64,000 bases of DNA from Acidobacteriota bacterium (GCA_040755995.1 JBFMAF010000052.1:32001-96000); one strand, 5' to 3'; counted from the first letter of the stretch, positions 24,696-44,686 are shown. A program made the numbers and translations. Notes: generated by a model not told the origin, from the letters alone.

Positions 24696-25465
24696 TGAAC
24701 CTCACACTTCATATCTGGCGGCAGAAGAACCGAAACGACAAAGGACGCTTCGTCACGTATCCGTTGAAGGACGTGAGCGAGCACATGTCCTTCCTGGAGA
24801 TGCTTGACATACTGAACGAGCAGCTGATCGGGCGGGGCGAGGAGCCCGTGGCGTTCGAGCATGATTGCCGCGAGGGCATCTGCGGATGCTGCGGCATGGT
24901 GATCGGCGGCGCGCCGCACGGCGGGCACGCCGGCACCACCGTCTGCCAGCTCCACATGCGCCACTTCAAGGACGGCGACGAGGTGATCATCGAGCCCTGG
25001 CGCGCCAAGGCTTTCCCGGTGCTGAAGGACCTGATCGTGGATCGCAGCTCCTTTGACCGGATCATGTACGCAGGCGGCTACATCTCGGTGCGCACCGGGA
25101 GCGCTCCCGAGGCCAATTCGATCCTGATCCCGAAGGACGTGGCCGAGAAGGCGATGGACTACGCCGAGTGCATCGGGTGCGGGGCGTGTGTCGCGGCCTG
25201 CCCGAACGGCGCGGCGATGCTGTTCGTCAGCGCGAAGATCTCGCAATTCGGGCTGTTGCCGCAGGGGCAGCCCGAGCGGATGCGTCGCGCGCAGAACATG
25301 GTCCTGGCGATGGAGAAGGAAGGGTTCGGGTCCTGCACCAACTACACCGCGTGCGAGATCGCCTGCCCGAAGCGGATCGGCATCAGCGGCATAGCGCGCA
25401 TGAACCGCGACTTCAACAAGGCGATGCTCTGCACGGTGGAGGCCGCCTCAGGCAAGCGCGCGTAG
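24695..25465 (+). CDS. sdhB: Succinate dehydrogenase/fumarate reductase iron-sulfur subunit
   Basis: [33 protein letters not shown]. Confidence 0.96.
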
Positions 25466-28229: not shown

Positions 28230-29210
28230 ATGGGCTTGCTCGCGACACCGCTCACACGCCACGCGGGAATCGAATTCCCGATCATCTGCGGCGCGATGTA
28301 CCCGTGCGGGAATCCGGAGCTCGTGGCGGCAGTGTCGGAGGCCGGCGGCATCGGCATTCTGCAGCCGGTCTCCCTCACGTATGTCCACGGCCACGAGTTT
28401 CGCGCGGGGATTCGTTTCGTGCGCAGCCTCACGTCGAAGCCGATCGGGATGAATGCGCTGATCGAAAGCTCGTCGAAGGCCTACCACAAGCGGATGGTCA
28501 AGTGGGTCGAGGTAGCTCTCGAAGAGGGCGTCCGCTTCTTCGTCACATCGTTGGGCAATCCGAACTGGGTGGTCGACGCGGCCCGGCCGTTGGGCGCCGT
28601 GGTGTACCATGACGTCACCGAGCGGAAGTGGGCGCTCAAGGCCCTGGACAGCGGCGTCCACGGTCTCGTCGCAGTGAACCGGCGAGCTGGTGGGCACGCG
28701 GGAGCTCTGTCACCCGAGCGGCTGATTGATGAGATCAGCGATCTCGGCGTGCCGGTCATATGCGCCGGAGGTGTTGGGAACGCGAGCGACTTCGTATCAG
28801 CCTTGCGAATGGGCTACGCCGGCGTCCAGATGGGGACGCGATTCATCGCAACGCCGGAGTGCCGCGTGAGCCAGCTCTACAAAGACGCGATTGTGCGAGC
28901 CCAGGAGGAAGATATAGTTCTGTCAGAGCGTATCACGGGTGTGCCCGTGGCGGTCATCAACACGCCGTACGTCCGGCGGGCCGGCACGAAGGCCGGCGTC
29001 TTTGCGCGCTGGATGCTTCGAGGACGCCGCACCAAGAAGTGGATGCGGACCATCTACGCCTTGCATTCAGGCTGGCAGTTGAAGCGGGCATCCCTCGACG
29101 AGTCCGGGGAGAGAGAATACTGGCAGGCCGGCAAGAGCGTCGCCGGCATCGATCGGATTGAAGCCGCCGGCGATATCGTCAGGCGATTCGCAGAAGCTGC
29201 AATGGCGTGA
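28230..29210 (+). CDS. Nitronate monooxygenase / FabK-like flavin oxidoreductase
   Basis: PIICGAM, AAVSEAGGIG, AGGHAG, VICAGG, GVQMGTRF, WQAG. Confidence 0.88.
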   Translation: MGLLATPLTRHAGIEFPIICGAMYPCGNPELVAAVSEAGGIGILQPVSLTYVHGHEFRAGIRFVRSLTSKPIGMNALIESSSKAYHKRMVKWVEVALEEGVRFFVTSLGNPNWVVDAARPLGAVVYHDVTERKWALKALDSGVHGLVAVNRRAGGHAGALSPERLIDEISDLGVPVICAGGVGNASDFVSALRMGYAGVQMGTRFIATPECRVSQLYKDAIVRAQEEDIVLSERITGVPVAVINTPYVRRAGTKAGVFARWMLRGRRTKKWMRTIYALHSGWQLKRASLDESGEREYWQAGKSVAGIDRIEAAGDIVRRFAEAAMA

Positions 29211-29378
29211 CCGCGACGCGCGTGTGGCCCACCTTCTTGAAGGCTCCACCGCGTCTGCCCCGGCCGGTTCCGGCGGGCCCGGCCATCGTTTCGAAGCCGA
29301 TTTCTGATACGATGAACCATGCGAATGGGCTTCTCGAGCGCCAGACACCGGTTTTGTTTCGATGAGGAGGGCACGACA

Positions 29379-30383
29379 ATGATCAACAGAGTTCTCGTGG
29401 CATTTGTTCTGCTTGGCTTGCTCGTCCCGGGGTCGTACGCCGCCGACCTGGCGGGCTCGCGCGACCACCCGTTGCTCAAGCGATTCGGCGGGTCCGAGAT
29501 CGTCGCCTACGATCAGAAGCGGTTCGACGTATACGAATTGCAGACCTCGACCTTCAAGAGCTACAGCCTCTCGACCAATACTCGCGAGTTCGCCAGCCCG
29601 CCGCTGAAGCTCGAAGGAACGGTCACGCGCATCTGGTACGAGGCGGCCGGCGACGCCAGCGCGGTTGAGGTGATACGTAACTATCAGAACGAAATGAAAT
29701 CCGCTGGATTTGAAGTCCTCTACGATTCCAGCGCCGACCGGTCAGCGACGCGCTGGGTCAACTTCCTCGCGCCATTCTCGCAAACGAAGATCAACAGCAG
29801 CCGCGGGTACTACATCTTCTACGCAGCTGACAAGGATGGAATCCGCACTCTCAGTGCCGTGTTGAAGCGGGCCGAAGGAGATGTGTACGTCTACCTCACG
29901 GCCGTGGACTGGGCCAAGGATGACGCCGTGTACAAGGCGAAGCGCGGGGCCTACGTGGCCGTTGACATCATCGAGGTCAAGCCCATGGTGCAGAACATGA
30001 TACTGGTCAGCGCCGACGGAATGTCGAGCGCGATCAAGGGCAGCGGCCGCGTCGCGCTGTACGGAATCCTCTTCGACTTCAACCGGGCCGAGATCAAGCC
30101 AGAATCCAAACCGACCCTGGAGCAGATCGCGAAATTGATGCAGCAGGATGCCAAGTTGAAATTGTGGGTGGTCGGTCACACTGACAACGTCGGCGATTTG
30201 AGCTCGAACATGGATCTCTCGCGGCGCCGCGCCGAGGCGGTGGTGGCCGCTTTGACCCGCGACTACGGCGTGGCAGCATCCCGCCTGAGCGCGCAGGGGG
30301 TGGCTTTTCTGGCTCCGGTGGCGGTAAACACCACCGACGAGGGCCGGGCGAAGAATCGGCGCGTCGAGCTCGTGCCCTGGTGA
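29379..30383 (+). CDS. OmpA-family peptidoglycan-binding protein with N-terminal DUF4892-like domain
   Basis: Signal peptide, D..GSRDHPLLKRF.GS; ILFDFN, VGHTD, LSRRRAEAV, GRAKNRRVELV. Confidence 0.88.
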   Translation: MINRVLVAFVLLGLLVPGSYAADLAGSRDHPLLKRFGGSEIVAYDQKRFDVYELQTSTFKSYSLSTNTREFASPPLKLEGTVTRIWYEAAGDASAVEVIRNYQNEMKSAGFEVLYDSSADRSATRWVNFLAPFSQTKINSSRGYYIFYAADKDGIRTLSAVLKRAEGDVYVYLTAVDWAKDDAVYKAKRGAYVAVDIIEVKPMVQNMILVSADGMSSAIKGSGRVALYGILFDFNRAEIKPESKPTLEQIAKLMQQDAKLKLWVVGHTDNVGDLSSNMDLSRRRAEAVVAALTRDYGVAASRLSAQGVAFLAPVAVNTTDEGRAKNRRVELVPW

Positions 30384-30607
30384 GCCGGGGATCAATAGAA
30401 GCCTCATCCGCAGTCCCACTGGCCTGCCGCGTTAGGGAGGCCCGCGTCTCGGACGCCGTTTTGAAATCTGCGCGCCGATGTGTATGATCGGCTGGTGCGC
30501 GATCGGACCCGGGCGTCGGGTAGGCTCCGGCATCAACGTAGTGGGGAGACGGCTGGGCTACAGAGTAACTGAACAAAGATGAAGGAACCGCTTTACGGTT
30601 GTGTCTA

Positions 30608-31174
30608 ATGGTGCGTGAACAGGACGATGCCGCTGTGGTACAAGGATGCCTCTCGGGTGACCGATCGTGCCAGGAGAAGCTGGTGCGGGAGAATCTCGTG
30701 ACGGTTATGAGCGTTGCCCTTGGATTCACTCGCGACCGGACCTCGGCCGAGGACCTGGCTCAGGAGGTCTTCGCGAGGGTTTTTGGGAATCTGAAGGGAT
30801 TCCGCGGCGGATCATCGCTGCGGACGTGGATCTATTCGATCGCCGTTACCCAGGGGCTAAACGCCGTGCGCAAGCGCAGGCCGGATACCCTGAAGATCGA
30901 TGAGGCCCGAGCCGTGCAAGGGGCGGAGACATCGCCTGAGCAGCGAGCACTCCAGGCAGAGCTCCATGCCGCCGTTCATCAGGCCGTCGAGAGTCTGCCC
31001 GAGAACCTGAGATCGGTGGTGGTGCTGTGTTCATTCGAGAACCGCCCAGCCGAGGAGGTGGCAGGGCTGCTGTCGATTCCGCCTGGAACGGTCTTTTCGA
31101 GGATGAGCAAGGCGAAGGAGATCCTGCGCCGGAAGCTGGCGCGATTCATGGAGCCGCAGGGAGCCGGGCGATGA
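30608..31174 (+). CDS. ECF RNA polymerase sigma factor
   Basis: Region 2 AEDLAQEVF...F.GGSSLRTWIYSIA; region 4 EEVAGLLSIPPGTVFSRMSKAK. Confidence 0.92.
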   Translation: MVREQDDAAVVQGCLSGDRSCQEKLVRENLVTVMSVALGFTRDRTSAEDLAQEVFARVFGNLKGFRGGSSLRTWIYSIAVTQGLNAVRKRRPDTLKIDEARAVQGAETSPEQRALQAELHAAVHQAVESLPENLRSVVVLCSFENRPAEEVAGLLSIPPGTVFSRMSKAKEILRRKLARFMEPQGAGR

Positions 31175-32619
31175 CAAAGTGTGATTCGGAGCTATTATCG
31201 AGCCTGGCCGGCCGGCTTGCGCCTGCCGACGGGGGCGATGCCAGGGCGCTTTCCGAGCGAGCCAAGGCCGATCCAGGCGCGTTCGGTTATCTGCCCGGGG
31301 CCGAACGCGTGTTCCTTGCGGAGCACGTCGGCGGTTGCGAGAGATGCCGCGGGCTCCTGGATGAGCAGCTCTCGGTCGGAGTCCTTCTGCGGAAGGCCTC
31401 CTTTCACCTGCCGGCTGATGTTGATGAAAAGGCTCTGCGGATGCTGGAGGAACGTATCGTGCAGCGGGAGGCGGAGCGATTCGCCGGGGCTGCGCGGGTC
31501 TCCCGGCCGCGGATTATTGAGATTCTCGACTTGGCAAAGGAGTTCATCATGTCGATCGATCCAACCAAGGGATTGAAGTACAAGTACGGCCTCGGCGGTA
31601 TTGCCATTGGAGCTGTCTTGGCATTCGTCGTGTACTTCGCTGCTCTTTATCCGTGGCCGGGCATGCAGGAGGCCGCCGGGACGATGGGGGGTGTTGAAAA
31701 AGCCGACCGGTATCGGTCTGAGCAGATGTCGGAGAGCACCATCGGGACCGAGGTTCCCACCAGCGCGGAGTACAGGGAGCAGATGCAGAAGATCCTGCAA
31801 CGGATCGATACTGCCAAACTCATGAAGGCGGCTGCGGTCGACCAGGTCGTGCAGGCCGTCAACGCTACAGGCTTCTTCAGGGGTCCCATGCAGAGCCTGA
31901 TACAGAACGCGGTCGCCGATGCCTGCCAGTCGACAGGAATCGTGGTCTGCAACAACGCGGCTCTCATGCAGGGGATTGAGCAGTCCGCGCTGGCCGGGAT
32001 TCAGAACGCAGTCGGCTACCAGGTGCAGGCTGCCATGCAGAATGCGTTCCTGATGTCCTGCCAGACCGCCTTGGAGAACGTCCTGAAGTCGAATGTGGCG
32101 ATGCAGGGGGCCATCTCCGACCCGAAGGCCCAGGCGTTCTTTGCTCAGTCGCTCGAGTCGGGGTTTGTGGGAGTGCTGGCGCAGCCAGCGGTGCAGAAAC
32201 TGCTCATGGATCAGGCCGCGGGCGTGGTGGGCGCTACCTTCAATGACCAGGCCCTCATGACGGGAATGAGCACGCAGGTGGAAAACGCGTGCGGGTTGTT
32301 CATGCAGCAGAACAAGGACGGGTTGGGCGTGGGTGCCACGGCCCTTTCCCCACAGCTGCAAGCCGCCGTCGCGCAAAACGTCCAGAGTGCCGTGGGGGCC
32401 GTTTGGCAGACCGGGGCCGTGGGTGCCGTCGGCGCCGTGGGCGCGGTGGGCGCCGTGGGCTCCTCGCAGGCCAGCGCTCTGGCCAACATGCAGGGCTTCC
32501 TCATGAGCAACGTGGCCGGCGCGGTCGGGGCAAGCCAGGCCTATGGGGCCATGGCGAACAGCCTCTTGGCCAGCTCTAACTCCTTCCTGCAGAGCTCGGG
32601 CATCGTCGTCCCGCGATAG
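31171..32619 (+). CDS. Zinc-binding anti-sigma domain + TM + Gln/Ala/Gly-rich extracytoplasmic domain
   Basis: ATGA coupling to sigma; HxxxCxxC (HVGGCERC); TM GIAIGAVLAFVVYFAALYP; (GAV)5 repeat. Confidence 0.8.
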   Translation: MTKCDSELLSSLAGRLAPADGGDARALSERAKADPGAFGYLPGAERVFLAEHVGGCERCRGLLDEQLSVGVLLRKASFHLPADVDEKALRMLEERIVQREAERFAGAARVSRPRIIEILDLAKEFIMSIDPTKGLKYKYGLGGIAIGAVLAFVVYFAALYPWPGMQEAAGTMGGVEKADRYRSEQMSESTIGTEVPTSAEYREQMQKILQRIDTAKLMKAAAVDQVVQAVNATGFFRGPMQSLIQNAVADACQSTGIVVCNNAALMQGIEQSALAGIQNAVGYQVQAAMQNAFLMSCQTALENVLKSNVAMQGAISDPKAQAFFAQSLESGFVGVLAQPAVQKLLMDQAAGVVGATFNDQALMTGMSTQVENACGLFMQQNKDGLGVGATALSPQLQAAVAQNVQSAVGAVWQTGAVGAVGAVGAVGAVGSSQASALANMQGFLMSNVAGAVGASQAYGAMANSLLASSNSFLQSSGIVVPR

Positions 32620-32811
32620 GGGCACGAGGGCGGAGGCAGGTGGCGTGGGCATGACAGAGGGCGCTGTGAGTGCTCAGATGTACCAGCTCAACGCGAAGAT
32701 CGATCTCGCGTTGGCCCCTGGGAGCTGGGGTCGGCTGGCTATGGAAGCCCCATTTCCCCTTGTCCCGGCCGCGGATTTGGTGAGAGTCTTCATTGAACAA
32801 AGGAGTTCATA

Positions 32812-33909
32812 ATGTCGTTAGATCCAACCAGAGGGATTAAACTCAAGTACATGATCGGCGGTTTTGCCATCGGAGCCGTCGTGGCATTCGCCGTGTACTA
32901 TGCCGCTCTCTATCCCTGGCCGAGAGCCCAGGAGGCCGCCGGGACAATGGGGGGCGTTCAAAAAGCCGACCGGTACCGATCCGAGCAGATGTCCGAGAGC
33001 ACCATCGCGACCGAGGTTCCCACCAGTGCGCAGTACAGGGAACAGATGCAGAGGATCCTGCAACGGATCGATACTGCGAAACTCATGAAGGCGGCTGCGG
33101 TTGACCAGTCCGTGCAGGCCATCAACGCTTCGGGATTCTTGAACACTCCGGGCATGCAGAGCATGATACAGAACGCGGTCGCCGCGTCGTGCCAGGCGTC
33201 CGGAGTGGTGATCTGCAACAATCCGGGCTTCATCAGTGGGATGGAGCAATCCGTGCAGGCCGGGATACAGAACGCAGTCGGCTATCAGGTGCAGGCCGCG
33301 TTGCAGAATGCATTCCTGATGACGTGCCAGTCGACCCTGGACAACGTTCTGAAGTCGAACGTGGCCATGCAGGGAGCTATCTCCGATCCGAAAGCGCAGG
33401 CTTTCTTCGCTCAGTCCCTGGAATCGGGGCTGGTCGGGGTGCTGGGGCAAGCTGCGATGCAGAAATTGCTCATGGAACAGGCTGTCGGCGTCGTGGGCGC
33501 CACCTTCAATGACAAGGCCCTCATGACGGGAATGGGCCAGCAGGTGGCGAACGCGTGCGGTGTCTTCATGCAGCAGAATAAGGACGGGTTGGGGGTGGGT
33601 GCCGCGGCACTTTCCCCGCAGCTACAGGCCGCCGTCGCACAAAATGTCCAGAGCGCCGTCGGAGTAGTGTGGCGGGGCGGAGCCGTGGGTGCCGCCGGCG
33701 CGGTGGGCGCCGTAGGGGCCGTGGGTGCAACGGGAGCCGTGGGCGCCCTTGGCGATGTGCAGGCCACCGCTCTGGCCAATATGCAGGGCATCCTCATGAG
33801 CAATGCGGTCGGAGCTCTCGCGGGAAGCCAGGCCTATGGCGCCATGGCCAACGGCGTTCTGGCCAGTGCGAACTCCTTTCTCCAGAGCTCGGGCATCGTC
33901 ATCCGATAG
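32812..33909 (+). CDS. Paralog of the preceding protein lacking the anti-sigma domain (TM + Gln/Ala/Gly-rich domain)
   Basis: Colinear with 31549-32619; AAGGAG RBS; 8 G-A-x triplets. Confidence 0.85.
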   Translation: MSLDPTRGIKLKYMIGGFAIGAVVAFAVYYAALYPWPRAQEAAGTMGGVQKADRYRSEQMSESTIATEVPTSAQYREQMQRILQRIDTAKLMKAAAVDQSVQAINASGFLNTPGMQSMIQNAVAASCQASGVVICNNPGFISGMEQSVQAGIQNAVGYQVQAALQNAFLMTCQSTLDNVLKSNVAMQGAISDPKAQAFFAQSLESGLVGVLGQAAMQKLLMEQAVGVVGATFNDKALMTGMGQQVANACGVFMQQNKDGLGVGAAALSPQLQAAVAQNVQSAVGVVWRGGAVGAAGAVGAVGAVGATGAVGALGDVQATALANMQGILMSNAVGALAGSQAYGAMANGVLASANSFLQSSGIVIR

Positions 33910-33916
33910 TGGCAGC

Positions 33917-36900
33917 ATGAGGGGTGAGGCAGGCGGCGGAGGGTTGGCGGGACGGCCGGTCGGGTCAGGGATCCGGCGATTGCGACCCCGGAGTAGCCGG
34001 TTCCGATGGGGCTCGGCCCGAGGCGGCGACATCCCGCCGGCGATGGGCGCGCCGGCTCTGCTCCTTGCGGGACTCCTCCTGCTTCCCGCTGCACCGCTAT
34101 CAGCCCAGTTCAACAGCATCGAAACGAAGAACCAGCAGCTGATCACGTACGGACCGATGCTCTCGTACCTGGCTCCGCATCTCGCTCGCTGTTTCGAGAA
34201 CTCGCTCCGGACGCACGAGGCCATATGGGACTACGTCCCCACCGAGAAGACGCAGATGATCTTTCACGATCTGGCCGACTCGTGCAACGCTGCCGCCACG
34301 TCGGTTCCTCACAACATGCTGGTCGTCAACGCGGCTCCGTTCAGCTACGTCTACGAGACGTTGCCGGGAAACGAACGGCTGAACTGCCTCATGAATCATG
34401 AGCTCACGCACGTCCTGACCATCGACAAGGCGTCGGCCACGGACCGCTTTTTTCGAAACGTGTTCTTCGGCAAGGTGTCACCGGTGCCGGAAGCGCCCCT
34501 GTCGATCCTGTACGGCGGACTGACGAGTCCGCGTCTCTATTCGCCGCGCTGGTTCATGGAAGGGATCGCTGTGTTCATGGAGACCTGGATGGCGGGCGGG
34601 ATCGGCCGCGCGCTGGGAGCCTATGACGAAATGGCCTTCCGGACCCTGGTCCATGACGACGCCGAGATGTTCGATCGCGTCGGCCTCGAGTCTTACGCGG
34701 TAAAGATGGATTTCCAGGTCGGTGCCATGTCGTATCTTTACGGCACGCGCTTCTTCAACTACCTTGCCCTGCAGTATGGTCCCGAAAGCCTGATCCGCTG
34801 GGTCTCGCGGACCGATGACAGCAAGAGCTACTTCTCGTCGCAGTTCCAGCAGATCTTCGGCAAGCCGCTCGACCAGGCCTGGAACGAGTGGCGCGCGTTC
34901 GAGCGTGAGTTCCAGCAGAAGAATCTGCAGTCGCTGCGCGCCTACCCGACGACCCAGTCCCGCGAGATAACGAGCGAGGCCGTCGGGTCGTTGTCGCGGC
35001 CCTACTATGACCCGTCCAGAGGGAAACTTTACATGGCGGTTGCTTACCCCGGACAGGTGGCACACGTCGCCTCGGTCGACGTTGCCACCGGCGCCGTTGA
35101 GCGCCTGTGCGACGTGAAGGGACCTGCCAATTATTTCGTGAGCTCAGTGGCATATGACCCGTCGACTGGGACTCTCTTCTACACAACCGACAACAAGGAC
35201 TGGCGCGATATCCGGGCCGTGGATGTCCGCACCGGCCGCTCGCGTCAGGTCATGAAGGATGCCCGCATCGGCGACATCGCGTTCAATGGCGCGGATCGGT
35301 CGCTGTGGGGTGTCCAGCGCGCCAACGGCATTTCGTCGCTTGCGCGAATCCCCGAACCCTACACGAACTGGGTCGCAATCTTCACGTGGCCCTACGGCAA
35401 GGACATCTACGATCTGGACATCTCTCCGGACGGCAAGAGAATCTCGGCCGCACTGACCGAGCCGACCGGACGGCAAAGCCTCATCCTGATGGACGTGGAC
35501 AAGTTGCTGAAAGGAGAGCAAAGTTACGAGACGCTGTACGATTTCGAGTACAGCTCGCCGGAGAATTTTGTCTTCACGCCGGACGGCAAGTACCTCGTGG
35601 GGACCTCGTTCTACAGCGGAGTATCCAATGTCTACAGGTACGATCTGGAGCTTCGCGACATACAGATCATGAGCAACTGCGAGACCGGATTCTTCCGCCC
35701 GATGCCATACAACGATCGCGAGATTCTCGTCTACGAATACACGGCCCGAGGCTTCGTGCCCGCCGTCATTCCGTTCCAACCGGTCGCCAACGTAAATGCC
35801 ATACGGTTTCTCGGGCAGGAGGTCGTCGAGAAGCACCCGATTGTCAAGAGCTGGAAGGCCGGCTCCCCGGCCTCGATCGATCTTGACACGCCGGACGTCC
35901 GGCGGGGCCGCTACCACGACCTCACGTCCATGCGCTTGACATCCATCTACCCGGTCGTCGAAGGATACAAAGACTTCCCTGTATACGGGTTGAAGGCGTC
36001 CCTGAGCAGTCCGTTCAGCACGGTGGATTTCACCGCCGGATACTCACCTAACACGAACCTTCCCGGGGCCGAACGGACCCATCTCAAACTCTCCATCCGC
36101 CGGACGTTCTGGAAGCTATCGGGAACATACAACACGTCGGATTTCTACGATCTTTTCGGCCCGACCAAGGCCAGCCGCAAGGGGTATTCGTATTCGCTTG
36201 AACACTTCCGAACTCTTGTATTCGACGAACCGAACCGCTACGTGGACTACAGCATCCGGGCCGCGGCCTACGGCGACATGGATAGGCTTCCAGACTACCA
36301 AAACATCTCGACTGACATCCGCCAGATGTTCACGCTGCGAGGCAAGTTCAACTATCAATACTTGACGAAGTCGCAGGGCGCCATCGATGACGAAAAAGGC
36401 CACCAATGGCAGATCATCGCCGACGCTTCATACGTCAAGCCGAAGGTCTACCCGCGGGTTTATGCTAATCTCGACTACGGATTTCCATTGCGCCTGCACC
36501 GGTCGTCGGTGTGGCTGCGGAGCTCCGCCGGCGTCGCGGCCGGCAACCGCGAGTCCCCATTCGCGAACTTCTACTTCGGCGGGTTCGGCAACAACTGGGT
36601 CGACCATCTCACAGAAACGCGCTATCGCGAATCATACTCGTTCCCGGGGGTGGACCTGAACGAAATCGGCGGCACGAACTACGGCAAGCTGCTTGTGGAG
36701 TGGAATGTCCCGCCGGTGATCTTCCACCGCCTGGGGTGGCCGTCGTGCTACCTCAACTACATCCGTCCGGCGGTATTCGGGACGGTGCTGGGCACGAATC
36801 TCGATGACTCCGCGGTTCGCCGGACTCTGTTCGACGCCGGAGTACAGCTGGACTTCCGGTTCATCGTGCTCTCACGCTTGAACATGACGCTCTCCGTCGG

Positions 36901-36970
36901 CGCCGCCGCGGCCGTGGAGAAAGATCATGCTCCGTCCAGCGAGTTCATGGCCTCGCTGAAGATTCTCTGA
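33917..36970 (+). CDS. Large secreted/outer-membrane protein: HExxH metallopeptidase-like domain, TolB-like propeller, probable C-terminal beta-barrel
   Basis: Signal peptide ending PLSA-QF; NHELTH and PRWFMEGIAV; ISPDGK / FTPDGK repeats; aromatic alternating strands at the C-terminus. Start could also be 34043. Confidence 0.75.
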   Translation: MRGEAGGGGLAGRPVGSGIRRLRPRSSRFRWGSARGGDIPPAMGAPALLLAGLLLLPAAPLSAQFNSIETKNQQLITYGPMLSYLAPHLARCFENSLRTHEAIWDYVPTEKTQMIFHDLADSCNAAATSVPHNMLVVNAAPFSYVYETLPGNERLNCLMNHELTHVLTIDKASATDRFFRNVFFGKVSPVPEAPLSILYGGLTSPRLYSPRWFMEGIAVFMETWMAGGIGRALGAYDEMAFRTLVHDDAEMFDRVGLESYAVKMDFQVGAMSYLYGTRFFNYLALQYGPESLIRWVSRTDDSKSYFSSQFQQIFGKPLDQAWNEWRAFEREFQQKNLQSLRAYPTTQSREITSEAVGSLSRPYYDPSRGKLYMAVAYPGQVAHVASVDVATGAVERLCDVKGPANYFVSSVAYDPSTGTLFYTTDNKDWRDIRAVDVRTGRSRQVMKDARIGDIAFNGADRSLWGVQRANGISSLARIPEPYTNWVAIFTWPYGKDIYDLDISPDGKRISAALTEPTGRQSLILMDVDKLLKGEQSYETLYDFEYSSPENFVFTPDGKYLVGTSFYSGVSNVYRYDLELRDIQIMSNCETGFFRPMPYNDREILVYEYTARGFVPAVIPFQPVANVNAIRFLGQEVVEKHPIVKSWKAGSPASIDLDTPDVRRGRYHDLTSMRLTSIYPVVEGYKDFPVYGLKASLSSPFSTVDFTAGYSPNTNLPGAERTHLKLSIRRTFWKLSGTYNTSDFYDLFGPTKASRKGYSYSLEHFRTLVFDEPNRYVDYSIRAAAYGDMDRLPDYQNISTDIRQMFTLRGKFNYQYLTKSQGAIDDEKGHQWQIIADASYVKPKVYPRVYANLDYGFPLRLHRSSVWLRSSAGVAAGNRESPFANFYFGGFGNNWVDHLTETRYRESYSFPGVDLNEIGGTNYGKLLVEWNVPPVIFHRLGWPSCYLNYIRPAVFGTVLGTNLDDSAVRRTLFDAGVQLDFRFIVLSRLNMTLSVGAAAAVEKDHAPSSEFMASLKIL

Positions 36971-37019
36971 TGGACGGTCTCGCGGCCTGTCCAGATTGTC
37001 CTCTTGCCTTCCGGCGGTG

Positions 37020-38027
37020 ATGCTCGCGCTCGAGATCGTCATCGCGCTCGCTCCGGTCTTCGTCTTTCTCGCAGCGCTCATCCTGTGCGACAGCTTCAAG
37101 CTGGCCGGGTGGCGGATGGTCTTGACGGCCATCCTGGCTGGCTTCGCCGCGGCGGCGGTGAGCTACGAAGTGACGGCATGGGTGATCGACGGACACATCG
37201 TCAAGACCGCCCATCACACAAGGTTCAGCGCCCCCGTAGTCGAAGAGCTGCTCAAGGCGCTGTTTCTCCTCTATCTCATCCGAGCGAGCCGGATCGGGTT
37301 TCTTGTCGACTCCGCCATCTACGGTTTCGCGATCGGCGCCGGATTCGCATCCGTCGAAAATCTCTATTACCTGTACGCAGTCGAGCGCGGCAGCCTGGTG
37401 ATCTGGGTGATAAGAGGATTCGGGACGGCCATCATGCACGGGGGAACTACGGCGATTTTCGGCATCCTCTCGAAGGGACTGGTGGATCGGCACGATTCAC
37501 ACAAGCTGGTTCTGTTCGTACCGGGTCTCCTCGTCGCTGCGGGCATCCACTCTGTATACAATCATTTCATACTGCCTCCGGCTCTCGGGACCGTCGTGCT
37601 CGTGATCACCCTGCCGCTGCTGCTGGTGTTCATCTTCGAGCGGAGCGAAGCGGCGCTCAGGAGCTGGCTGGAGCTCGACCTGGATGCCGACATGGCCATT
37701 CTCGACTATATCCGCAGCGGGCGTGTGCTCCAGAGCCGCATGGGCCGCTACCTCCGGTCGCTCAAGGGGCGTTTCCCGGGGGAGGTGCTGGCCGACATGC
37801 TTTGCTACGTTCGGCTGCACGTGGAGCTGGCCATCAGAGCGAAGGGGATCCTCATGATGCGCGAGGCCGGCTTCAAGCCAGACTTGGCGTCCGACATCCT
37901 GGAAAAATTCGAGGAGCTGGCGTACCTTGCCAGGACGATCGGCAAGACCGGCAGGCTCGCCGTCTCACCGCTCCTGCGCACCCGCAGCCGCGATCTCTGG
38001 CAGCTCAAGATGCTCCTCGACCTCTGA
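37020..38027 (+). CDS. prsW: PrsW-family glutamic intramembrane protease
   Basis: APVVEELLK (EExxK), GFASVEN (FxxxEN), MHG, IHSVYN (HxxxN). Confidence 0.88.
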   Translation: MLALEIVIALAPVFVFLAALILCDSFKLAGWRMVLTAILAGFAAAAVSYEVTAWVIDGHIVKTAHHTRFSAPVVEELLKALFLLYLIRASRIGFLVDSAIYGFAIGAGFASVENLYYLYAVERGSLVIWVIRGFGTAIMHGGTTAIFGILSKGLVDRHDSHKLVLFVPGLLVAAGIHSVYNHFILPPALGTVVLVITLPLLLVFIFERSEAALRSWLELDLDADMAILDYIRSGRVLQSRMGRYLRSLKGRFPGEVLADMLCYVRLHVELAIRAKGILMMREAGFKPDLASDILEKFEELAYLARTIGKTGRLAVSPLLRTRSRDLWQLKMLLDL

Positions 38028-38042
38028 TTCCTTGCCTCGATC

Positions 38043-39857
38043 ATGCTAGTGAGTCCACTGAGCAGCGACACGGACGACGAACGGCTATCCCTGATCTGGC
38101 CGGCGTTGATCGCGGCTCTGGCGCTGGGAATGAGGCTGGCATACCTCGCGGAGATCCGCACTCTGCCGCTTGTCGAGAACCTGCTGGGCGACAGCCGGAC
38201 GTACCTCGCGTGGGCTCACGAAATCACCTGCGGGCAGGGAGGCGGAATCGCCCCGTTCTATCAGGCTCCGGGCTACCCATACTTCCTCGCGATTCTCCAG
38301 GGAGTCTTCGGCGGCGGTGCCGCGACGATTCGCGTCATCCAGTGCGTATTGGGATCGATGTCGTGCGTGCTGACAGTCGTCGCGGGCCGGTATTTCTTCT
38401 CGGCGCGAGCCGGAATCATTGCCGGCGCTCTGCTCGCCGTCTACCCTCCTGCTTGGTTCTACGATGGTCTCGTGCAGAAGGCATCGCTCAGCCATTTCCT
38501 CCTGAGCAGCGTCCTCGCCCTGCTGGCCTGGGATGCCGGCCGGCCTCGGAGCTGGAAGCCGCTCATCGCCGGATTCCTGATCGGGATCGAGTGTCTCGTC
38601 GTGGAGCTCACGATGGCGCTCGTGCCCGTCGTGTTTCTGTGGATCTGGTTGCGCCGGAGCGCCGAAGACGCGGTTTCCGCTGGCGGGAGACTTCGCCGAA
38701 GAGCTATCAGGATTGGCGGACTCCTCGCCGGCATCCTGCTGGCAGTTGGACCGGTCGCCATCAGGAATCTCGTCGTGACGGGGTTGGCAAGTCCGACGAC
38801 GTACAACTTCGGAGTCACCTTCTACATCGGGAACAATCCGCTTGCGGATGGGACTTCAATACCGCTGGTTCCGGGTCGCGAGCTGGTTGATTCCGAGCGA
38901 AACGACGCGCAACGCCTCGCGGAGGCTGCGTCCGGACGCGAGCTCTCGCCGCTCGATATCTCGGCCTACTGGTTCGGTCGATCTCTGGAGTTCATTCGGG
39001 CTCACCCGCTGCGCTGGTCCAAGCTGCTGGGTTACAAGTTGCTGCTTGTCTGCAACGCCTACGAGATCCCAGATGTGGATGGGATGGCTGTGTGCGCGAG
39101 GTGGTCGCGGCTGTTCAGATATGGACATCCAGTGTACCACTTCGGCGTGCTCCTGCCGCTCGCCGCAATCGGCGCCGTACTGACCTGGCCTCAGCGGCGC
39201 AGGTTCTGGATTCTTTACGGGTACCTGCTTGAGATGGCCGCGGCGATCGTGCTCTTCTACGTGCTCGGCCGCTATAGATACACGCTGGTGCCCGCGCTAG
39301 TGTTACTCGCAGGGGCTGGAGCCTCCCGGCTGTCCGAGGGTCGCGATCTGGTGGAGGCCGTGGGGTGGAAGCGATTTCTCGCAGCAGCAGCCGCGACCAT
39401 CATCCTGGCGGCCGTTGTCAACGTGCCTCCCTCGCTTGCGACGTCCTGTGATGCCGTCGCGCTCGGGAACCTGGGCGTTGCGTACCTTGGCCAAGGCGAT
39501 CTCGCATCAGCTGCGCGGGTCACACATGAGGCCGTAGAAGGGGCGCCCGAGTGCGCATCCCTGCACTACAATCTCGGCACGATCTACTCATGGCAGCGGC
39601 GTTACGCGGAAGCGGCTCAGCAGTACCGGCTGACAATCGCCCTCCAGCCGGATTTCCCAGGAGTCCAGTACCGACTGGCTTTCGCCCTGGAGAAAGAAGG
39701 CCGGCCTCAGGAGGCTCAGGTGCATTACTGGAGAGCGCTCGAACGGGATCCGCGAGACATCTTTGCGCGAGACGCCCTGGAACGCCTCGGTTCAGAACTC
39801 GCCGGTGTAGGGGGGAGCGATTCGAGAGGAGGCCGGATTGGAGCGACCTCGCCATAA
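38043..39857 (+). CDS. GT-C (ArnT/PMT-like) membrane glycosyltransferase with C-terminal TPR repeats
   Basis: DSRTY..WA, FYQAPGYPYFLA, FYIGNNP, RYR; C-terminal HYNLG / YRLA TPR helices. Confidence 0.82.
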   Translation: MLVSPLSSDTDDERLSLIWPALIAALALGMRLAYLAEIRTLPLVENLLGDSRTYLAWAHEITCGQGGGIAPFYQAPGYPYFLAILQGVFGGGAATIRVIQCVLGSMSCVLTVVAGRYFFSARAGIIAGALLAVYPPAWFYDGLVQKASLSHFLLSSVLALLAWDAGRPRSWKPLIAGFLIGIECLVVELTMALVPVVFLWIWLRRSAEDAVSAGGRLRRRAIRIGGLLAGILLAVGPVAIRNLVVTGLASPTTYNFGVTFYIGNNPLADGTSIPLVPGRELVDSERNDAQRLAEAASGRELSPLDISAYWFGRSLEFIRAHPLRWSKLLGYKLLLVCNAYEIPDVDGMAVCARWSRLFRYGHPVYHFGVLLPLAAIGAVLTWPQRRRFWILYGYLLEMAAAIVLFYVLGRYRYTLVPALVLLAGAGASRLSEGRDLVEAVGWKRFLAAAAATIILAAVVNVPPSLATSCDAVALGNLGVAYLGQGDLASAARVTHEAVEGAPECASLHYNLGTIYSWQRRYAEAAQQYRLTIALQPDFPGVQYRLAFALEKEGRPQEAQVHYWRALERDPRDIFARDALERLGSELAGVGGSDSRGGRIGATSP

Positions 39858-40185: not shown

Positions 40186-41667
40186 TCAAGGACTGCTTGA
40201 CAGCAGCTTCAGGCTGATGGTCTTCGTGCTGGCGGTGATGTTGTTTTCGAGAATGGGGTCGTCATTCTTGTTGTCAGGGTCGATGACTGCGATGAGATGA
40301 TAGACCCCGGGCTGGACGGTCGAGGGTACGGGGATGCTCGCGATCAGCTTGCCCTTCTTGTTCGCGGATATTGGCTCGATCGCCACGGCACCCAGTGTCA
40401 GATCACTGACTGAGAAGGTCGTGTCCTTGGAGAGATAGAACATGACATCGGTCGGCTCCGTACTGTCATCGCCGTCGTTCAGAACATGGACCGTTGCCCG
40501 GATGGTACCACCGGGGACGGCCTGAATCGTGCCGACGTTCAGGGCAACTGCCCGCAGGTCGTTTATCTCCTTGAACTTCGCGCCCATGATCATGTTCAGG
40601 AGCTTCCCTGATTCTTCAAGAGTGACTTCGTATCCGCTCAGTGTATCGGGTACAACGACGTGAACAAGATCAAGGTCCGGGATGACCAGAATGGCGTGTC
40701 CCCTGTACCCGGATGCCGCATAACCAGCATGGCCCCGAAGGTGTTCGAACTGAGCGAGCGGCCGGAATTTGCGCGAGAATGTCTTCCACATGTACCCGAA
40801 TCCGTACCCGGCAAGTTCTGGAACGCCCATGGAGGCGTTTGACCAGGTCTTGGTGCTCTCCTTTACCCACTTCTCTGAGACGATCTGCTCGCCGCGCCAG
40901 TTGCCCTTGTTGAGGAACAACAAGCCGAATCGAGCCCGGTCCCGTGCTGACATCCAGAACGTGTACGCTGGGTGTATGGACTTGTCGAGTTCGTATTCGT
41001 AGCTGCAGAGCTTGACATCGAAGTCCTGCATCCCGATTCGGTCGGCGATCCGTGCCTTGAACTCCTGGTAGATGTCCTTTCCTGTCTCCTGCCGGAAGAT
41101 CGTGCCCAGCGCGTTGAAATCCCAGTTGTTGTAGTAGAAGAACTCGTCGGGGCCGTGAGAGCCGCGAGGGGGCCGGAGCGCTTCCATCTCGGGCGTTTCG
41201 GCGGCAGCTTCGTGGTAGACCCCCGACCGGGACTTGATCAAGTGAACGACCTTGGCCTGTTTCTCGGCCTCCGTCAGAGACGGCGGTATGTCATCGATCC
41301 CCAGTTCCTCGATCGTCTTGTCCATATCGATACTCCCCTCATCCACATGAATGCCGATGAGGGCGCTGAGGAAGCTCTTGCGAACCGAGTGACAGTAGTA
41401 GTTGCGTTTGCTCTTCCCCCACTCGAGCAGCAGCCTCCCCTTGTAGATGGTCACCGATGACGCATAGGCCGGCTGAAGCTGATCGAAGTATGCCTTCGCT
41501 TCGGCGATCTCTCCCGAATCGAACCCCGCCTCCTCGGGGCTGCCAAACCGGGGCCATCCTGCCTTGCCTCTGGCGGCGGAGGTCTCATCGGCCCAGATAG
41601 CGCACTGGCATGAGACAGCCAGGACGATGACAGGGATCGGTATTCCGTGAACAGGAGAATTCCTCAT
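40186..41667 (-). CDS. Secreted class C beta-lactamase-like serine hydrolase with C-terminal CARDB/Ig-like domain
   Basis: SVRK (SxxK), YNN (YxN), SARDRARFG; V.N.G...T...FYLSKD...GVYHLIAVID.DN...E.NN. Confidence 0.85.
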   Translation of the reverse strand: MRNSPVHGIPIPVIVLAVSCQCAIWADETSAARGKAGWPRFGSPEEAGFDSGEIAEAKAYFDQLQPAYASSVTIYKGRLLLEWGKSKRNYYCHSVRKSFLSALIGIHVDEGSIDMDKTIEELGIDDIPPSLTEAEKQAKVVHLIKSRSGVYHEAAAETPEMEALRPPRGSHGPDEFFYYNNWDFNALGTIFRQETGKDIYQEFKARIADRIGMQDFDVKLCSYEYELDKSIHPAYTFWMSARDRARFGLLFLNKGNWRGEQIVSEKWVKESTKTWSNASMGVPELAGYGFGYMWKTFSRKFRPLAQFEHLRGHAGYAASGYRGHAILVIPDLDLVHVVVPDTLSGYEVTLEESGKLLNMIMGAKFKEINDLRAVALNVGTIQAVPGGTIRATVHVLNDGDDSTEPTDVMFYLSKDTTFSVSDLTLGAVAIEPISANKKGKLIASIPVPSTVQPGVYHLIAVIDPDNKNDDPILENNITASTKTISLKLLSSSP

Positions 41668-41986: not shown

Positions 41987-44671
41987 TCACTCATGCCTCA
42001 GCGCATCGACCGGGTTGGCCCGGGCCGCCTTGATCGAATGGAGTCCCACGCTCCCTACGGCCAGGATCGCGCCGGCCAGGCCGGCCGCGACAAACACCCA
42101 GAGCTGGGGCGAGATCCGGTACGGGAACTCCTCGAGCCACGCGCTCACGTAGATGTGAGCCACCGGCCACGCCAGGAAATTGGCGATGGCGATCAACACG
42201 AGATACTCTCCCGTCAGAAGCCAGGTGATCCGGAGCGCTGTGGCCCCCAGCGCCCTTCGCACGCCAATCTCCCTGGTCCGTTGCTGCATGGTGAAGCTGG
42301 CCAGCCCGAAGAGGCCAAGACACGCCATGAGGACAGCCAGGATTCCTAGCGAGGAGAGGCCCCTTGCCGTGTCGCGCTCCGTGCGGTACATCCGCTGGAA
42401 GTCCTCGTTGACGAAGTGGTAGCTGTACGCCTCATCGGGGAAGCTCTTGCGGAAGGCCTTCTGGATGAACGCGACTGTCGATGGGATCTGCTCGGGCGAG
42501 ATCTTGATGGAGATGTTACTCCCGGTCGTATTTTCGGGGAGCAGGAACATCACCAGGGGTGTGATGGCGAAGTGGAGGGATCGAAGGTGGAAGTCTTTGA
42601 CAACACCAACCACCCGGATTTCGCGGTTGCTTTCCGACCGGTAGTCCCCTCCATAGTACAGCCTCTTGCCTATGGGCTCGTCCCAGCCCATTGCCTTGGC
42701 GGCCGTCTCGTTGACAATCGCGGCCGACACCGCTTCGGCACGAGATACCTCTTGGAAGCCCCGACCTCTGACCAGCTTCATCTGGTAGGTCGACATGAAG
42801 TCCTCGTCGACGTAGTTGTTGTTGATTGAAATCTCGGTGCCGGGCGCCGCCCCTTCCCAGCTCGTGCCGGTCCAGTTGATCGAATCGTAGGGGAGGTAGT
42901 CGGAGCTGCACACGTTGAGGATATGAGGGTTCTTCATGAGCTCCGCACGGAAGACCTCAGTCTGTACCGCATTGATTTGGTTCAACGGAATGGTGATGAC
43001 TTGGTCGCTGCGAAACCCCAAGTCCTTCGAGGTGAGGTAGCTGACCTGCTGTAGAACGACGACCGTGGCGATGATCATCGAGATGGAGATGAAGAACTGG
43101 ATGACGACCAGGGATTTCCGGAGGATCGGATTCCTGTAGCCGGAGGACATCGTTCCTTTGAGCACACGAATGGGGTGAAACGAAGACAGGACAAGAGCAG
43201 GATAGAGACCCGAGAGCACGGCGACCACCATGGCCAGCAGGGCAATACCGGCGAGCCAGATCGGCTCGTCGAGGAAAGGAATGCGCAGATTCTGCCCCAG
43301 CAGAGCCGGAAATAGCGGTCGCATGACCAACATCAGGACCAGAGCCAGCCCGGAGGCGACAAACGTCGTCAGGATCGATTCGCAGAGGAACTGCGTTACC
43401 AGGGCTGTTCTCTGAGCACCCGACACCTTCCTCAGCCCGACTTCCTTGGCGCGGTGCGCCGAGCGCGCCGTAGACAGGTTGACGGAGTTGATGACGGCGA
43501 TCAGGAGCACGAACAGAGCGACGATCGAGAAGAGTCGGACTCTCTTGATGCTCCCGATCACCCCGATCTCCTCCGTCACGTCGGCGCAGAGATGAATCTG
43601 GGTCAGAGGGCGGAGGTACAGCTCGTTTCTGCTCTGTCCCCCCTGCAGTCTCTTCAGTCCCGATCTGAGCTTGGCATCCAAAGCCGAGACGGACTCTCCC
43701 GGCCTCAGGAGAATGTAGAACTGCGTGAAGTTGCTCGTCGTATCGGTGAAGACCTCTGGGCCGAAGAAGTCTTCCAGTGTGGACTCAGAGAGGATCATCT
43801 CGAAACTCAGATGAGAATCAGCGGGGACCTCTTCGAGGATCCCCGTGACCTGGACGTCCAGTGTCTGGTCCCCTTCACGGAGTTGGGGATTGGAGGCGCG
43901 CAGGACCTTCCCGAGGGGCTCGGTGTCCCCGAAGAACCGCTTCGCCAGGCCCTCTGTCAGCACAACCGAATTGGGGGCCCGTAGAGCCGTCCTCGGGTCT
44001 CCTTTCTTCAGGCGGAAGGAAAAGACGCGAAACAACCCTTCGTCTGAGATCAAGGTCCTTTCCACTTGGAGCTTGCGACCGTCAGCCGTCCTCAACAGGA
44101 ACGGGAAAACCCCGCAGAACCGCGTGACATCTTCGATCTCGGGAAAGTCGAGGATCGAGATGACCGTGGCAGGCAGACTGGCCGTCGCCTTACGGCTGTT
44201 TCCATCGTCCACTATCTGTTCGATCCTGACAATGCGATCAGACTTCTCATGAAACCGGTCGAAGCTCAGTTCCAATCTCACATAGAGCCCGATCACGAGA
44301 AACACGGTCAGGCCCGCGGCCAGCCCGAATACGTTGATGAGAGTGTACCCCAGGTGGCGCCGCATGTTTCGCAGGCCGACCTTGGCGTAGTTCCAGCCCA
44401 GGGCGGGCACGAAGCGCGGCGGCTGCCATGGCGGCCGCCCCGAACGCCGGGTGGTGCACGCCTTGTAGAACTCCGTGCCGATGTCGGCGGTTCCGCCGAG
44501 ACGCGCGGCCACCTGGTTGAATGCCTCCTCCTCGGTCATGCCCTGTCCCACCAGCTCCTCGATGCCGTCGCGCAGGTGCCCCTCGAGCTCGGCAATGTAC
44601 CCTTCCTCTATGGACTGGCTTCTGGCCAGTCCGCCCTTCCAGGCCCTGATGGCTCTCTCCAGGTCGAACAT
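41987..44671 (-). CDS. Duplicated MacB/FtsX-type ABC permease with permease-prefix domain
   Basis: AELEGHLRD prefix domain; two repeats RAKEVGLRKVSGA / RTREIGVRRALGA; ANPVDALRHE end. Confidence 0.9.
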   Translation of the reverse strand: MFDLERAIRAWKGGLARSQSIEEGYIAELEGHLRDGIEELVGQGMTEEEAFNQVAARLGGTADIGTEFYKACTTRRSGRPPWQPPRFVPALGWNYAKVGLRNMRRHLGYTLINVFGLAAGLTVFLVIGLYVRLELSFDRFHEKSDRIVRIEQIVDDGNSRKATASLPATVISILDFPEIEDVTRFCGVFPFLLRTADGRKLQVERTLISDEGLFRVFSFRLKKGDPRTALRAPNSVVLTEGLAKRFFGDTEPLGKVLRASNPQLREGDQTLDVQVTGILEEVPADSHLSFEMILSESTLEDFFGPEVFTDTTSNFTQFYILLRPGESVSALDAKLRSGLKRLQGGQSRNELYLRPLTQIHLCADVTEEIGVIGSIKRVRLFSIVALFVLLIAVINSVNLSTARSAHRAKEVGLRKVSGAQRTALVTQFLCESILTTFVASGLALVLMLVMRPLFPALLGQNLRIPFLDEPIWLAGIALLAMVVAVLSGLYPALVLSSFHPIRVLKGTMSSGYRNPILRKSLVVIQFFISISMIIATVVVLQQVSYLTSKDLGFRSDQVITIPLNQINAVQTEVFRAELMKNPHILNVCSSDYLPYDSINWTGTSWEGAAPGTEISINNNYVDEDFMSTYQMKLVRGRGFQEVSRAEAVSAAIVNETAAKAMGWDEPIGKRLYYGGDYRSESNREIRVVGVVKDFHLRSLHFAITPLVMFLLPENTTGSNISIKISPEQIPSTVAFIQKAFRKSFPDEAYSYHFVNEDFQRMYRTERDTARGLSSLGILAVLMACLGLFGLASFTMQQRTREIGVRRALGATALRITWLLTGEYLVLIAIANFLAWPVAHIYVSAWLEEFPYRISPQLWVFVAAGLAGAILAVGSVGLHSIKAARANPVDALRHE

Positions 44672-44686
44672 GCCCGATCGCCCCAC

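Follow-up and report, generated by a model that had tools for sequence, protein, structure and literature searches.

Which function could unite a sigma factor, membrane-anchored proteins and a peptidase of the outer membrane that are encoded side by side? This question is raised by a stretch of 64,000 nucleotides from an Acidobacteriota bacterium (GCA_040755995.1, JBFMAF010000052.1:32001-96000; hereafter the window, meaning the stretch at its full length), which lies within a single contig of a 7.7 Mb genome that is 99.8% complete. Five plus-strand open reading frames (ORFs) were confirmed at 30608-38027, encoding in turn an extracytoplasmic function (ECF) sigma factor, the products of genes 2, 3 and 4, and the protease PrsW. 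The original prediction saw in them a novel, self-contained signalling cascade across the envelope. Comparison of sequences between genomes points to a wider answer: the window genes are a local, derived variant of a cassette spread over many diderm phyla, whose constant core consists of a membrane-anchored repeat protein (hereafter LC), a gluzincin/propeller/16-strand Omp85-like protein (hereafter OM) and PrsW, and in which the sigma factor and the anti-sigma head are exchangeable.

The cassette was traced through OM, for which the genome collection contains at least 627 relatives; the best 80 of these loci (L001-L080, picked by OM only) were studied together with 32 regions from the host phylum, and the best relative among the matches listed has 72% identity and is labelled as an acidobacterium. 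Among the 55 loci of the L001-L080 set with at least 3.5 kb of upstream DNA, LC is present in 54, the sigma factor in 47, an anti-sigma domain in 46, an ATPase in 47 and a STAS protein in 49, and PrsW lies beside OM in 70 of the 74 loci counted for it. The labelled loci, 62 in number, carry 18 phylum names. A profile search of 301 host-phylum genomes (G024 was among them, and no claim is built on it) found a near-full OM orthologue in 29, of which 28 also have the LC leader, the remaining one having OM at the start of a contig; in the other 272 genomes no leader match covers the motif described below, and four match the transmembrane (TM) segment only. In the reverse direction, 12 metagenome loci were found by the leader, and all eight with enough DNA have OM adjacent. 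Homologues of the five genes thus co-occur far beyond chance and in many phyla, as the original prediction had supposed, whether the search begins from OM or from the leader. Two loci with the OM gene, L002 and L076, are labelled as monoderm lineages (Eubacteriales and Dormiibacterota); the sister of L076 is an Eisenbacteria locus, and mis-binning or mislabelling is likely.

In the usual order, the genes for an RsbW-like ATPase and a STAS protein are followed by those for the ECF sigma, a separate anti-sigma, LC, OM and PrsW, often with a GAF-PP2C gene nearby. The usual anti-sigma is about 260 amino acids (aa) long, with a zinc-free head, one TM segment and a β-rich periplasmic domain. In the window, no RsbW-like ATPase or STAS gene occurs within 8 kb on either side, and all cassette genes are single-copy in the genome except for LC, which has two copies. 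The genes had been described as co-oriented and closely spaced; all five are real and co-oriented, but the spacing is uneven, with 192 nt between genes 2 and 3. The features of the locus are as follows.

30580..30608, plus strand: putative ECF-type promoter, motif TGAAG(G/A)A-N16/17-GTCT(A/C)A, whose -10 element touches the sigma start codon
30608..31174, plus strand: ECF sigma factor, start perhaps GTG 30611
31171..32619, plus strand: fused gene 2, with a zinc anti-sigma head (about aa 1-105), a linker and a whole LC copy (TM segment, leader and ectodomain)
31536..31551, plus strand: internal start in gene 2, with a Shine-Dalgarno sequence at 31536-31542 and an in-frame ATG at 31549, matching the start of gene 3
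31678..31755, plus strand: GTM motif (31678-31686) and KxY..Q block of the fused LC copy
32812..33909, plus strand: gene 3, stand-alone LC, with a Shine-Dalgarno sequence at 32799-32805, an N-in signal anchor (aa 15-33), the conserved leader and a degenerate helical-repeat ectodomain
32941..33018, plus strand: GTM motif (32941-32949, candidate PrsW site) and predicted OM-docking block (aa 46-69) of the stand-alone LC
33917..36970, plus strand: gene 4, OM, start uncertain (33917 or 34046), with a signal peptide and a mature start at about 34106
34397-34411 (HExxH) and 34559 (Glu), plus strand: OM gluzincin domain, HELTH and WFMEGIA
about 34943-35788, plus strand: OM six-bladed TolB-like propeller
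35789-35791, plus strand: residue 562 in the OM linker
about 35933-36967, plus strand: OM 16-strand Omp85-like barrel, without POTRA
36996/37020..38027, plus strand: prsW, start TTG 36996 or ATG 37020; PF13367 77.1 bits (cut-off 23.5)

The assignment of the first gene as an ECF sigma holds, with Pfam Sigma70_r2 and r4_2 and TIGR02937 (93.7 bits, cut-off 42.9) all matched above cut-off, although it is not the sigma typical of the cassette. It is not a SigW equivalog (89.9 bits, cut-off 209); for the usual cassette sigmas the SigW equivalog model is the best or second best, at 119-126 bits, under the cut-off. In a FastTree phylogeny, the method used for all trees here, the sigmas of the window, L111 and L041 form a clade (starred branch, 99) outside the clade of the 66 usual ones (starred branch, 95). 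The motif at 30580-30608 also precedes the sigma gene in L111 and L041 and has two strict matches genome-wide, and it is in these same three loci that zinc heads accompany the non-usual sigma, which suggests that sigma, head and promoter changed together. Read in this way, sigma, zinc anti-sigma head and promoter-like motif have all been swapped into the window locus. A search of 401 genomes for the origin of the zinc head returned only G029 and weak matches to generic zinc anti-sigmas. Closer to hand, the stand-alone LC of the nearest relative, L001, is preceded at 4321-4460 by the promoter-like motif that marks the zinc-head lineage and then by a short piece left over from a sigma N-terminus; this suggests a deletion of sigma and head from a formerly fused unit.

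Elsewhere the cassette has a motif of its own, CCAAC(T/C)-N16/17-GTAnT, which is absent from the window. In its strict form it precedes LC in 36 of 92 regions (0.04 expected), OM in none of 108 and PrsW in none of 98. Among unfused loci, a looser form is found before the sigma gene in 33/42 and before LC in 24/42; among fused loci the counts are 10/18 and 2/18, respectively. A promoter that "moves" upon fusion does not agree with this, since two sites are present when the genes are unfused and the one before LC is mostly lost when they are fused. The motif search upstream of the ATPase gene gave no promoter-like consensus. A sigma-70-like site (10 of 12 positions) at 30461-30488 (plus strand), upstream of the window sigma, could provide basal expression; the sigma-70 scan as a whole was near chance, with 4 sites against 2.5. 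A third type of sigma factor, without an anti-sigma gene and beside a divergently transcribed ATPase-STAS pair, was seen in L004, L006, L118 and L121 (and in L146 and L147), where, to judge from the gene arrangement, it may be under direct control of the partner switch.

Gene 2 is where the swapped head meets the core. Its start overlaps the sigma stop by ATGA; its zinc ligands, H52-x3-C56-x2-C59, are encoded at 31324-31347, with a zf-HC2 score of 19.1 bits (under the cut-off of 22.2), and H52, C56 and C59 are invariant in five related fusions. A single hydrophobic segment (aa 141-159) is followed by about 320 residues rich in Ala, Val, Gly and Gln. The sequence therefore agrees with the description of a sigma-coupled HxxxCxxC anti-sigma with one TM segment and a compositionally biased domain of about 320 aa. 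The zinc anti-sigma with such a domain is indeed present here, but as a local, derived fusion, most relatives having a separate zinc-free anti-sigma. Because the internal Shine-Dalgarno sequence and ATG match the start of gene 3, gene 2 can be understood as an in-frame fusion between an anti-sigma head and a second, complete copy of gene 3; the sequence common to the two reaches about 45 nt further upstream. The internal start probably yields LC without the anti-sigma head. Gene 3, predicted to be a paralog lacking the anti-sigma part, is just that: from Met127 of gene 2 onward the two are 80% identical in amino acids, with a synonymous divergence (dS) of 0.52, a nonsynonymous divergence (dN) of 0.11 and dN/dS of 0.22. 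By this measure, both LC copies are under purifying selection, with intact leaders. Two tandem LC genes also occur in L060 and L117, as in the window; LC duplication recurs.

Of 70 informative loci, 19 have a fusion of this kind, three of them assigned by eye; 18 fusions were detected by profile. On the 70-row OM tree the fusions require 12 changes, 11 of which are forced by starred branches. The counts cannot give the direction of change, and regain of a whole periplasmic domain is less likely than its loss. All 18 profile-detected fusions keep a Shine-Dalgarno sequence of at least 5 nt with an in-frame ATG or GTG at the LC start, a signature found at the equivalent place in 2/44 separate anti-sigma genes and in 58/74 stand-alone LC genes. 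Repeated fusion with a kept internal start implies that an anti-sigma can use the anchor and leader of LC in place of its own and that free LC is probably still made, although a recent fusion without selection could also explain the kept start. Fusions of LC to a head with zinc ligands recur in L111, L041, P0006 and P0029; in G029, a genome of the same family, the sigma and the fused gene (L111, contig C24) lie on a different contig from LC-OM-PrsW (L112, contig C117), and an unrelated gene on the opposite strand sits between LC and OM. Together with the joint swap, the repeated fusions show how a signalling head can be rewired onto a constant envelope core.

What do the core proteins look like? 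LC proteins in general have a basic N-terminus, one signal anchor and the leader D-x-x-G-T-I-G-(G-V-x)-x-x-K-Y-x-x-x-Q-I-x-x-x-D-V-x-L, followed by a near-neutral ectodomain of 141-790 aa (median 328) that differs in every lineage. Its best period is a multiple of 9 in 44/85 proteins and of 12 in 12/85; the window copies have lost this periodicity, and what had been called a low-complexity domain belongs instead, in decayed form, to a family of helical repeats with units of 9 or 12 residues. For a typical LC (from L015 rather than the window), AlphaFold2 gives a solenoid built of helices 7 residues long, with a predicted local distance difference test score (pLDDT) of 80. Fold searches with this model returned designed helical repeats only (best Z 9.0, root-mean-square deviation (rmsd) 11.0 over 331 aligned residues; Foldseek TM-score at most 0.23), matches that are uninformative for helical repeats. 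The Pfam family STI1-HOP_DP (PF17830) is matched by 13 of 23 typical LCs (best E 2e-20), and not by the window LC. Single-sequence searches with the LC protein gave no useful matches, and an Atlas search with P0003 no usable one. LC was also considered as a polytopic membrane protein, which was rejected as it has one TM segment. Speculatively, its amphipathic repeats could bind lipids, peptides or unfolded proteins.

Two short elements follow the LC membrane anchor. The relaxed motif G[TSA][ILMV], 4-27 aa after the TM segment, occurs in 40/44 separate anti-sigmas and 81/88 LCs, compared with 43/433 control ORFs; for the strict GT[ILM] the counts are 30/44, 63/88 and 8/433, respectively. The separate anti-sigmas are otherwise unrelated to LC, and the KxY..Q..D block downstream of the motif is present in 71/92 LCs and in none of the 44 anti-sigmas. 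The shared juxtamembrane motif may thus be read as a site for a membrane protease, which suits PrsW, and the LC-specific block as a putative site for another partner.

PrsW itself was expected to have all catalytic motifs, and the window protein does (EExxK, FxxxEN, H143 and HxxxN, besides PF13367 above cut-off); across the family EExxK is kept in 95/96, FxxxEN in 95/96 and HxxFN in 94/96. It scores 39 bits against NF033739, below the cut-off of 225. The C-terminal extension of about 125 aa (37650-38027 in the window) is strongly conserved across the family without a Pfam match and is a candidate contact for the partner-switch proteins. The cascade is not self-contained as supposed, for the locus holds no site-2 protease; an M50 family member is encoded elsewhere in the genome.

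The predicted architecture of OM, a secreted protein of about 1000 aa with HExxH, propeller and barrel-like parts, is upheld by its motifs and by an AlphaFold2 model of high confidence (pLDDT 93.8, predicted TM-score (pTM) 0.91), which has a gluzincin domain, a six-bladed propeller and a 16-strand barrel. The zinc motifs are kept throughout the family (HExxH in 102/102, EGxA in 98/102), and Pfam matches of the peptidase domain are weak (BSP in 8/25, Peptidase_MA_2 in 7/25). TolB is the top match of the propeller (Z 23.2, rmsd 3.0, 244 aligned; Foldseek E 9e-9), and propellers fill the fold-search listings. Strands 11 and 12 of the barrel are connected by a long loop that is highly conserved, and 68 barrel positions are at least 90% conserved. 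Omp85_2 is matched in 29 of 41 OM members (best E 1.3e-5, under the Pfam cut-off), HHalign of the OM barrel with the host's own Omp85 barrels gives a non-significant probability of 0.4%, and neither Pfam nor the model reveals a POTRA domain. Membership of OM in Omp85 is thus weakly suggested by the model topology and these Pfam matches. Searches of PDB sequences gave no matches for the barrel profile and one chance match for the peptidase profile. The window genome has a separate BamA-like gene.

A link between the two envelope proteins emerges from modelling. When mature OM (86-row alignment) was combined with 34 LC leader residues (50 rows), the complex scored 0.69 and the best of three controls 0.01; 116 of 157 solved complexes reach the mark for this score, which applies roughly with these alignments, compared with 2 of 215 mismatched pairs. 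At least 81% of contacts are common to the runs, the partner pLDDT is at least 53, and the modelled leader, from the Met of GTM onward, lies on OM residues 164-172, 502-505 and 561-575. No solved relatives of the LC leader or OM were found beyond generic propellers. LC leaders come in a short and a long form that differ by a 3-residue indel, and the OM columns that best track this indel, 562, 510 and 504, all fall within the modelled interface, which holds 6 of the top 25 such columns compared with 1.15 expected. Of the loci with a short leader 46/49 have Asp562, as do 2/26 of those with a long one; in a tree-aware test of 799 columns by independent pairs, column 562 came first and had no discordant pair. 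The window has a long leader and Asn562. In short leaders Asp562 would face the T/I of GT[IM], an arrangement that would suit the capping of a free N-terminus after a cut there. Binding of the LC leader by OM is accordingly a supported prediction.

The reading towards which we incline, at somewhat better than even probability, is a circuit of release and capture, in which cleavage of two substrates by PrsW frees the sigma and provides released LC for capture by OM. By analogy with its family and given the coupling of the genes, the anti-sigma head of gene 2 would hold the sigma at the inner membrane. PrsW would cut at GT[IM] or a neighbouring position, some 10-14 residues beyond the membrane, both in the fused anti-sigma and in free LC; the latter would come from its own promoter in unfused loci and, in fused ones, from the internal start. 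The anti-sigma stub would be finished by a housekeeping M50 site-2 protease, as in the SigW/RsiW/PrsW/RasP paradigm, and the freed sigma would transcribe its own operon from the conserved motif at 30580-30608. The released LC ectodomain would dock by its new N-terminal block in the groove formed by peptidase domain, propeller and linker of OM, which may then clip it or pass it to the barrel. Free LC may also compete for PrsW and so buffer the response.

Several observations weigh against the release-and-capture reading. PrsW is not nearby in 4/74 loci and the sigma is missing in 8/55; four loci have a divergent (third-type) sigma and no anti-sigma, and G055 and G269 have only short OM fragments, without the leader. 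The locus counts are inflated by close kin and by a few genomes present twice, the LC motif count is partly circular, as the leader profile was seeded with the motif (which leaves the anti-sigma count as the only independent one), and the controls are crude six-frame ORFs. Residues of the modelled interface are averagely conserved (0.65 vs 0.62-0.64), one "short" row (L022) was mis-parsed, and the tree-aware test has 5 independent pairs, cannot reach p<0.05 and gives a median p of 0.125. Finally, the original prediction had OM sense, process or export the repeat proteins; leader docking is predicted, but the catalytic residues lie outside the confident interface and the model does not show LC as a substrate of OM.

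The same docking could serve secretion in the first place. PrsW would then be a maturation peptidase that frees LC, and OM a translocator, its peptidase domain and propeller replacing POTRA, that reads the leader and moves the rod of helical repeats out to the surface, where it would form a variable fibre or coat, with the sigma only reporting the load on PrsW. Omp85/TpsB members are described, in the part of the source covered, as translocating or inserting proteins (PMC4104836), and the conserved loop of the 16-strand barrel, the Omp85_2 matches, the separate BamA-like gene and the modelled leader docking all fit, as does a constant leader on a hypervariable body of five-fold varying length, as in passenger proteins. 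We regard this as unlikely, given the weak homology of the barrel to Omp85 and the missing POTRA or TPS domain, and an intact peptidase beside the docking site suits degradation equally well. A broader version, which we hold to be doubtful, would make the cassette a new envelope export route: PrsW replaces signal peptidase and frees an α-helical repeat passenger, an exosite on the peptidase-propeller head of a POTRA-less Omp85 reads the passenger's new N-terminus for delivery to the surface, and PrsW activity is relayed to transcription through an anti-sigma that has the cut motif as well. This core would accept different sigma heads and promoters, and gene-in-gene fusions would make the cargo the anti-sigma.

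If instead OM binds LC or the fused anti-sigma while these are intact and anchored, across the periplasm or during OM biogenesis, binding could mask or expose the adjacent GT[IM], thereby sensing outer-membrane assembly or envelope width in the manner of cell-surface signalling; the first cut could even come from the OM peptidase. The predicted docking block does begin at the Met of GTM, adjoining the motif, the anti-sigma itself carries the block in fused genes, and the repeat model is an extended helical solenoid. However, the block lies about 12-35 residues from the inner membrane with the repeats beyond it, so the repeats are no spacer; separate anti-sigmas have the motif without the block, ectodomain length is far from constant, and the Asp562 pattern would fit a free N-terminus better, which leaves this tether or shield quite unlikely. 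It is highly improbable, lastly, that the sigma/zinc-head pair is an accidental graft without a working link to the proteases, only LC, OM and PrsW functioning together. A sigma of another clade, the lack here of the usual promoter motif and partner-switch genes, and the split between contigs in G029 would be expected of a graft. The recurrence of head-LC fusions with zinc ligands in four other loci, the conserved promoter-like motif of their own, and the purifying selection on both LC copies with intact leaders argue against it.

Directly upstream of the window cassette (29319-30383, plus strand) is a gene for an OmpA-domain protein with a DUF4892-like N-terminus, not conserved as a neighbour. 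Directly 3' of prsW (38043-39857, plus strand) is a gene for a GT-C (PMT_2) glycosyltransferase with tetratricopeptide repeats, whose orthologue also adjoins the cassette in the closest relative, L001, upstream of LC, and in none of the other loci examined; this enzyme could modify LC in this family. The neighbours at 22782-25465 and 28230-29210 (plus strand) and at 40186-41667 and 41987-44686 (minus strand) are ordinary. They encode an ABC permease and A and B subunits like those of succinate dehydrogenase/fumarate reductase (both by inspection), a nitronate monooxygenase and a beta-lactamase-family protein with a CARDB domain.

How far, then, do known systems resemble the cassette? The original prediction named no characterised system of this composition, and the gene set is not described in the full-text literature searched, subscription papers and bioRxiv supplements apart, nor in the part covered of the supplement to the ECF re-classification (PMC7826278). 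A cassette widespread across bacterial diderm phyla, most of them uncultured, thus apparently went undescribed, and the proposed circuit would account for a common but unstudied gene set. The regulatory half resembles SigW/RsiW/PrsW but falls outside that family, and the LC-OM half fits no family tested. In Bacillus, according to the part of the source covered, PrsW is the site-1 protease for RsiW (PMC10202637), and the SigW/RsiW/PrsW/RasP system of B. subtilis shares with the cassette an ECF sigma with a coupled single-pass anti-sigma, a PrsW-family protease with all motifs, the zinc HxxxCxxC head (in the window) and an M50 site-2 protease in the genome. Unlike it, the cassette belongs to diderm hosts, has prsW within the operon, an OM peptidase-barrel partner and a second putative substrate, LC, with the anti-sigma's motif, and its head is exchangeable; the usual form has a zinc-free anti-sigma domain and partner-switch genes. 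GT[IM] is a candidate recognition motif for PrsW-family proteases, and the cassette would give PrsW a role in diderms.

PrsW has also been proposed, in the passages covered, as a processing peptidase that releases the variable C-terminal cargo of polymorphic toxins, mainly of Gram-positives, to which it is fused and on which it acts in cis (PMC3482391). Here PrsW stands alone, its putative cargo has a gene of its own, and an immunity gene was not observed; a polymorphic toxin was rejected as LC has no toxin domain, and a defence system as the five proteins gave no PADLOC match. The 9-residue amphipathic helix-turn units of the STI1/HOP DP repeats (PF17830) resemble those of typical LCs, although the matches may reflect composition or periodicity, fold searches returned no STI1 chain, and LC has up to about 80 units in a periplasmic rod. 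In TpsA/TpsB systems, an Omp85-type barrel is encoded next to a long repeat protein whose N-terminal recognition segment is conserved and whose body varies. In contrast, the cassette has no POTRA on OM, and its passenger is α-helical with a signal anchor rather than a cleavable signal peptide; no TPS domain or beta-helical passenger was detected by Pfam, the L015 LC model is all-helical, and PrsW and a sigma are linked here. In its predicted architecture OM fits the WD40-Omp85 subfamily, described, in the passages covered, with an N-terminal peptidase, a TolB-like propeller and a 16-strand barrel without POTRA, and as occurring besides BamA (PMC4104836, PMC11358297); those passages give no substrate or gene context. 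The window OM is a very divergent relative, with PD40 and Omp85_2 under cut-off and 24-28% identity to PD40-rich relatives such as L110. Unlike that subfamily, OM is tied here to PrsW and LC, and the LC leader would be a first candidate ligand for these uncharacterised peptidase/WD40-Omp85 proteins.

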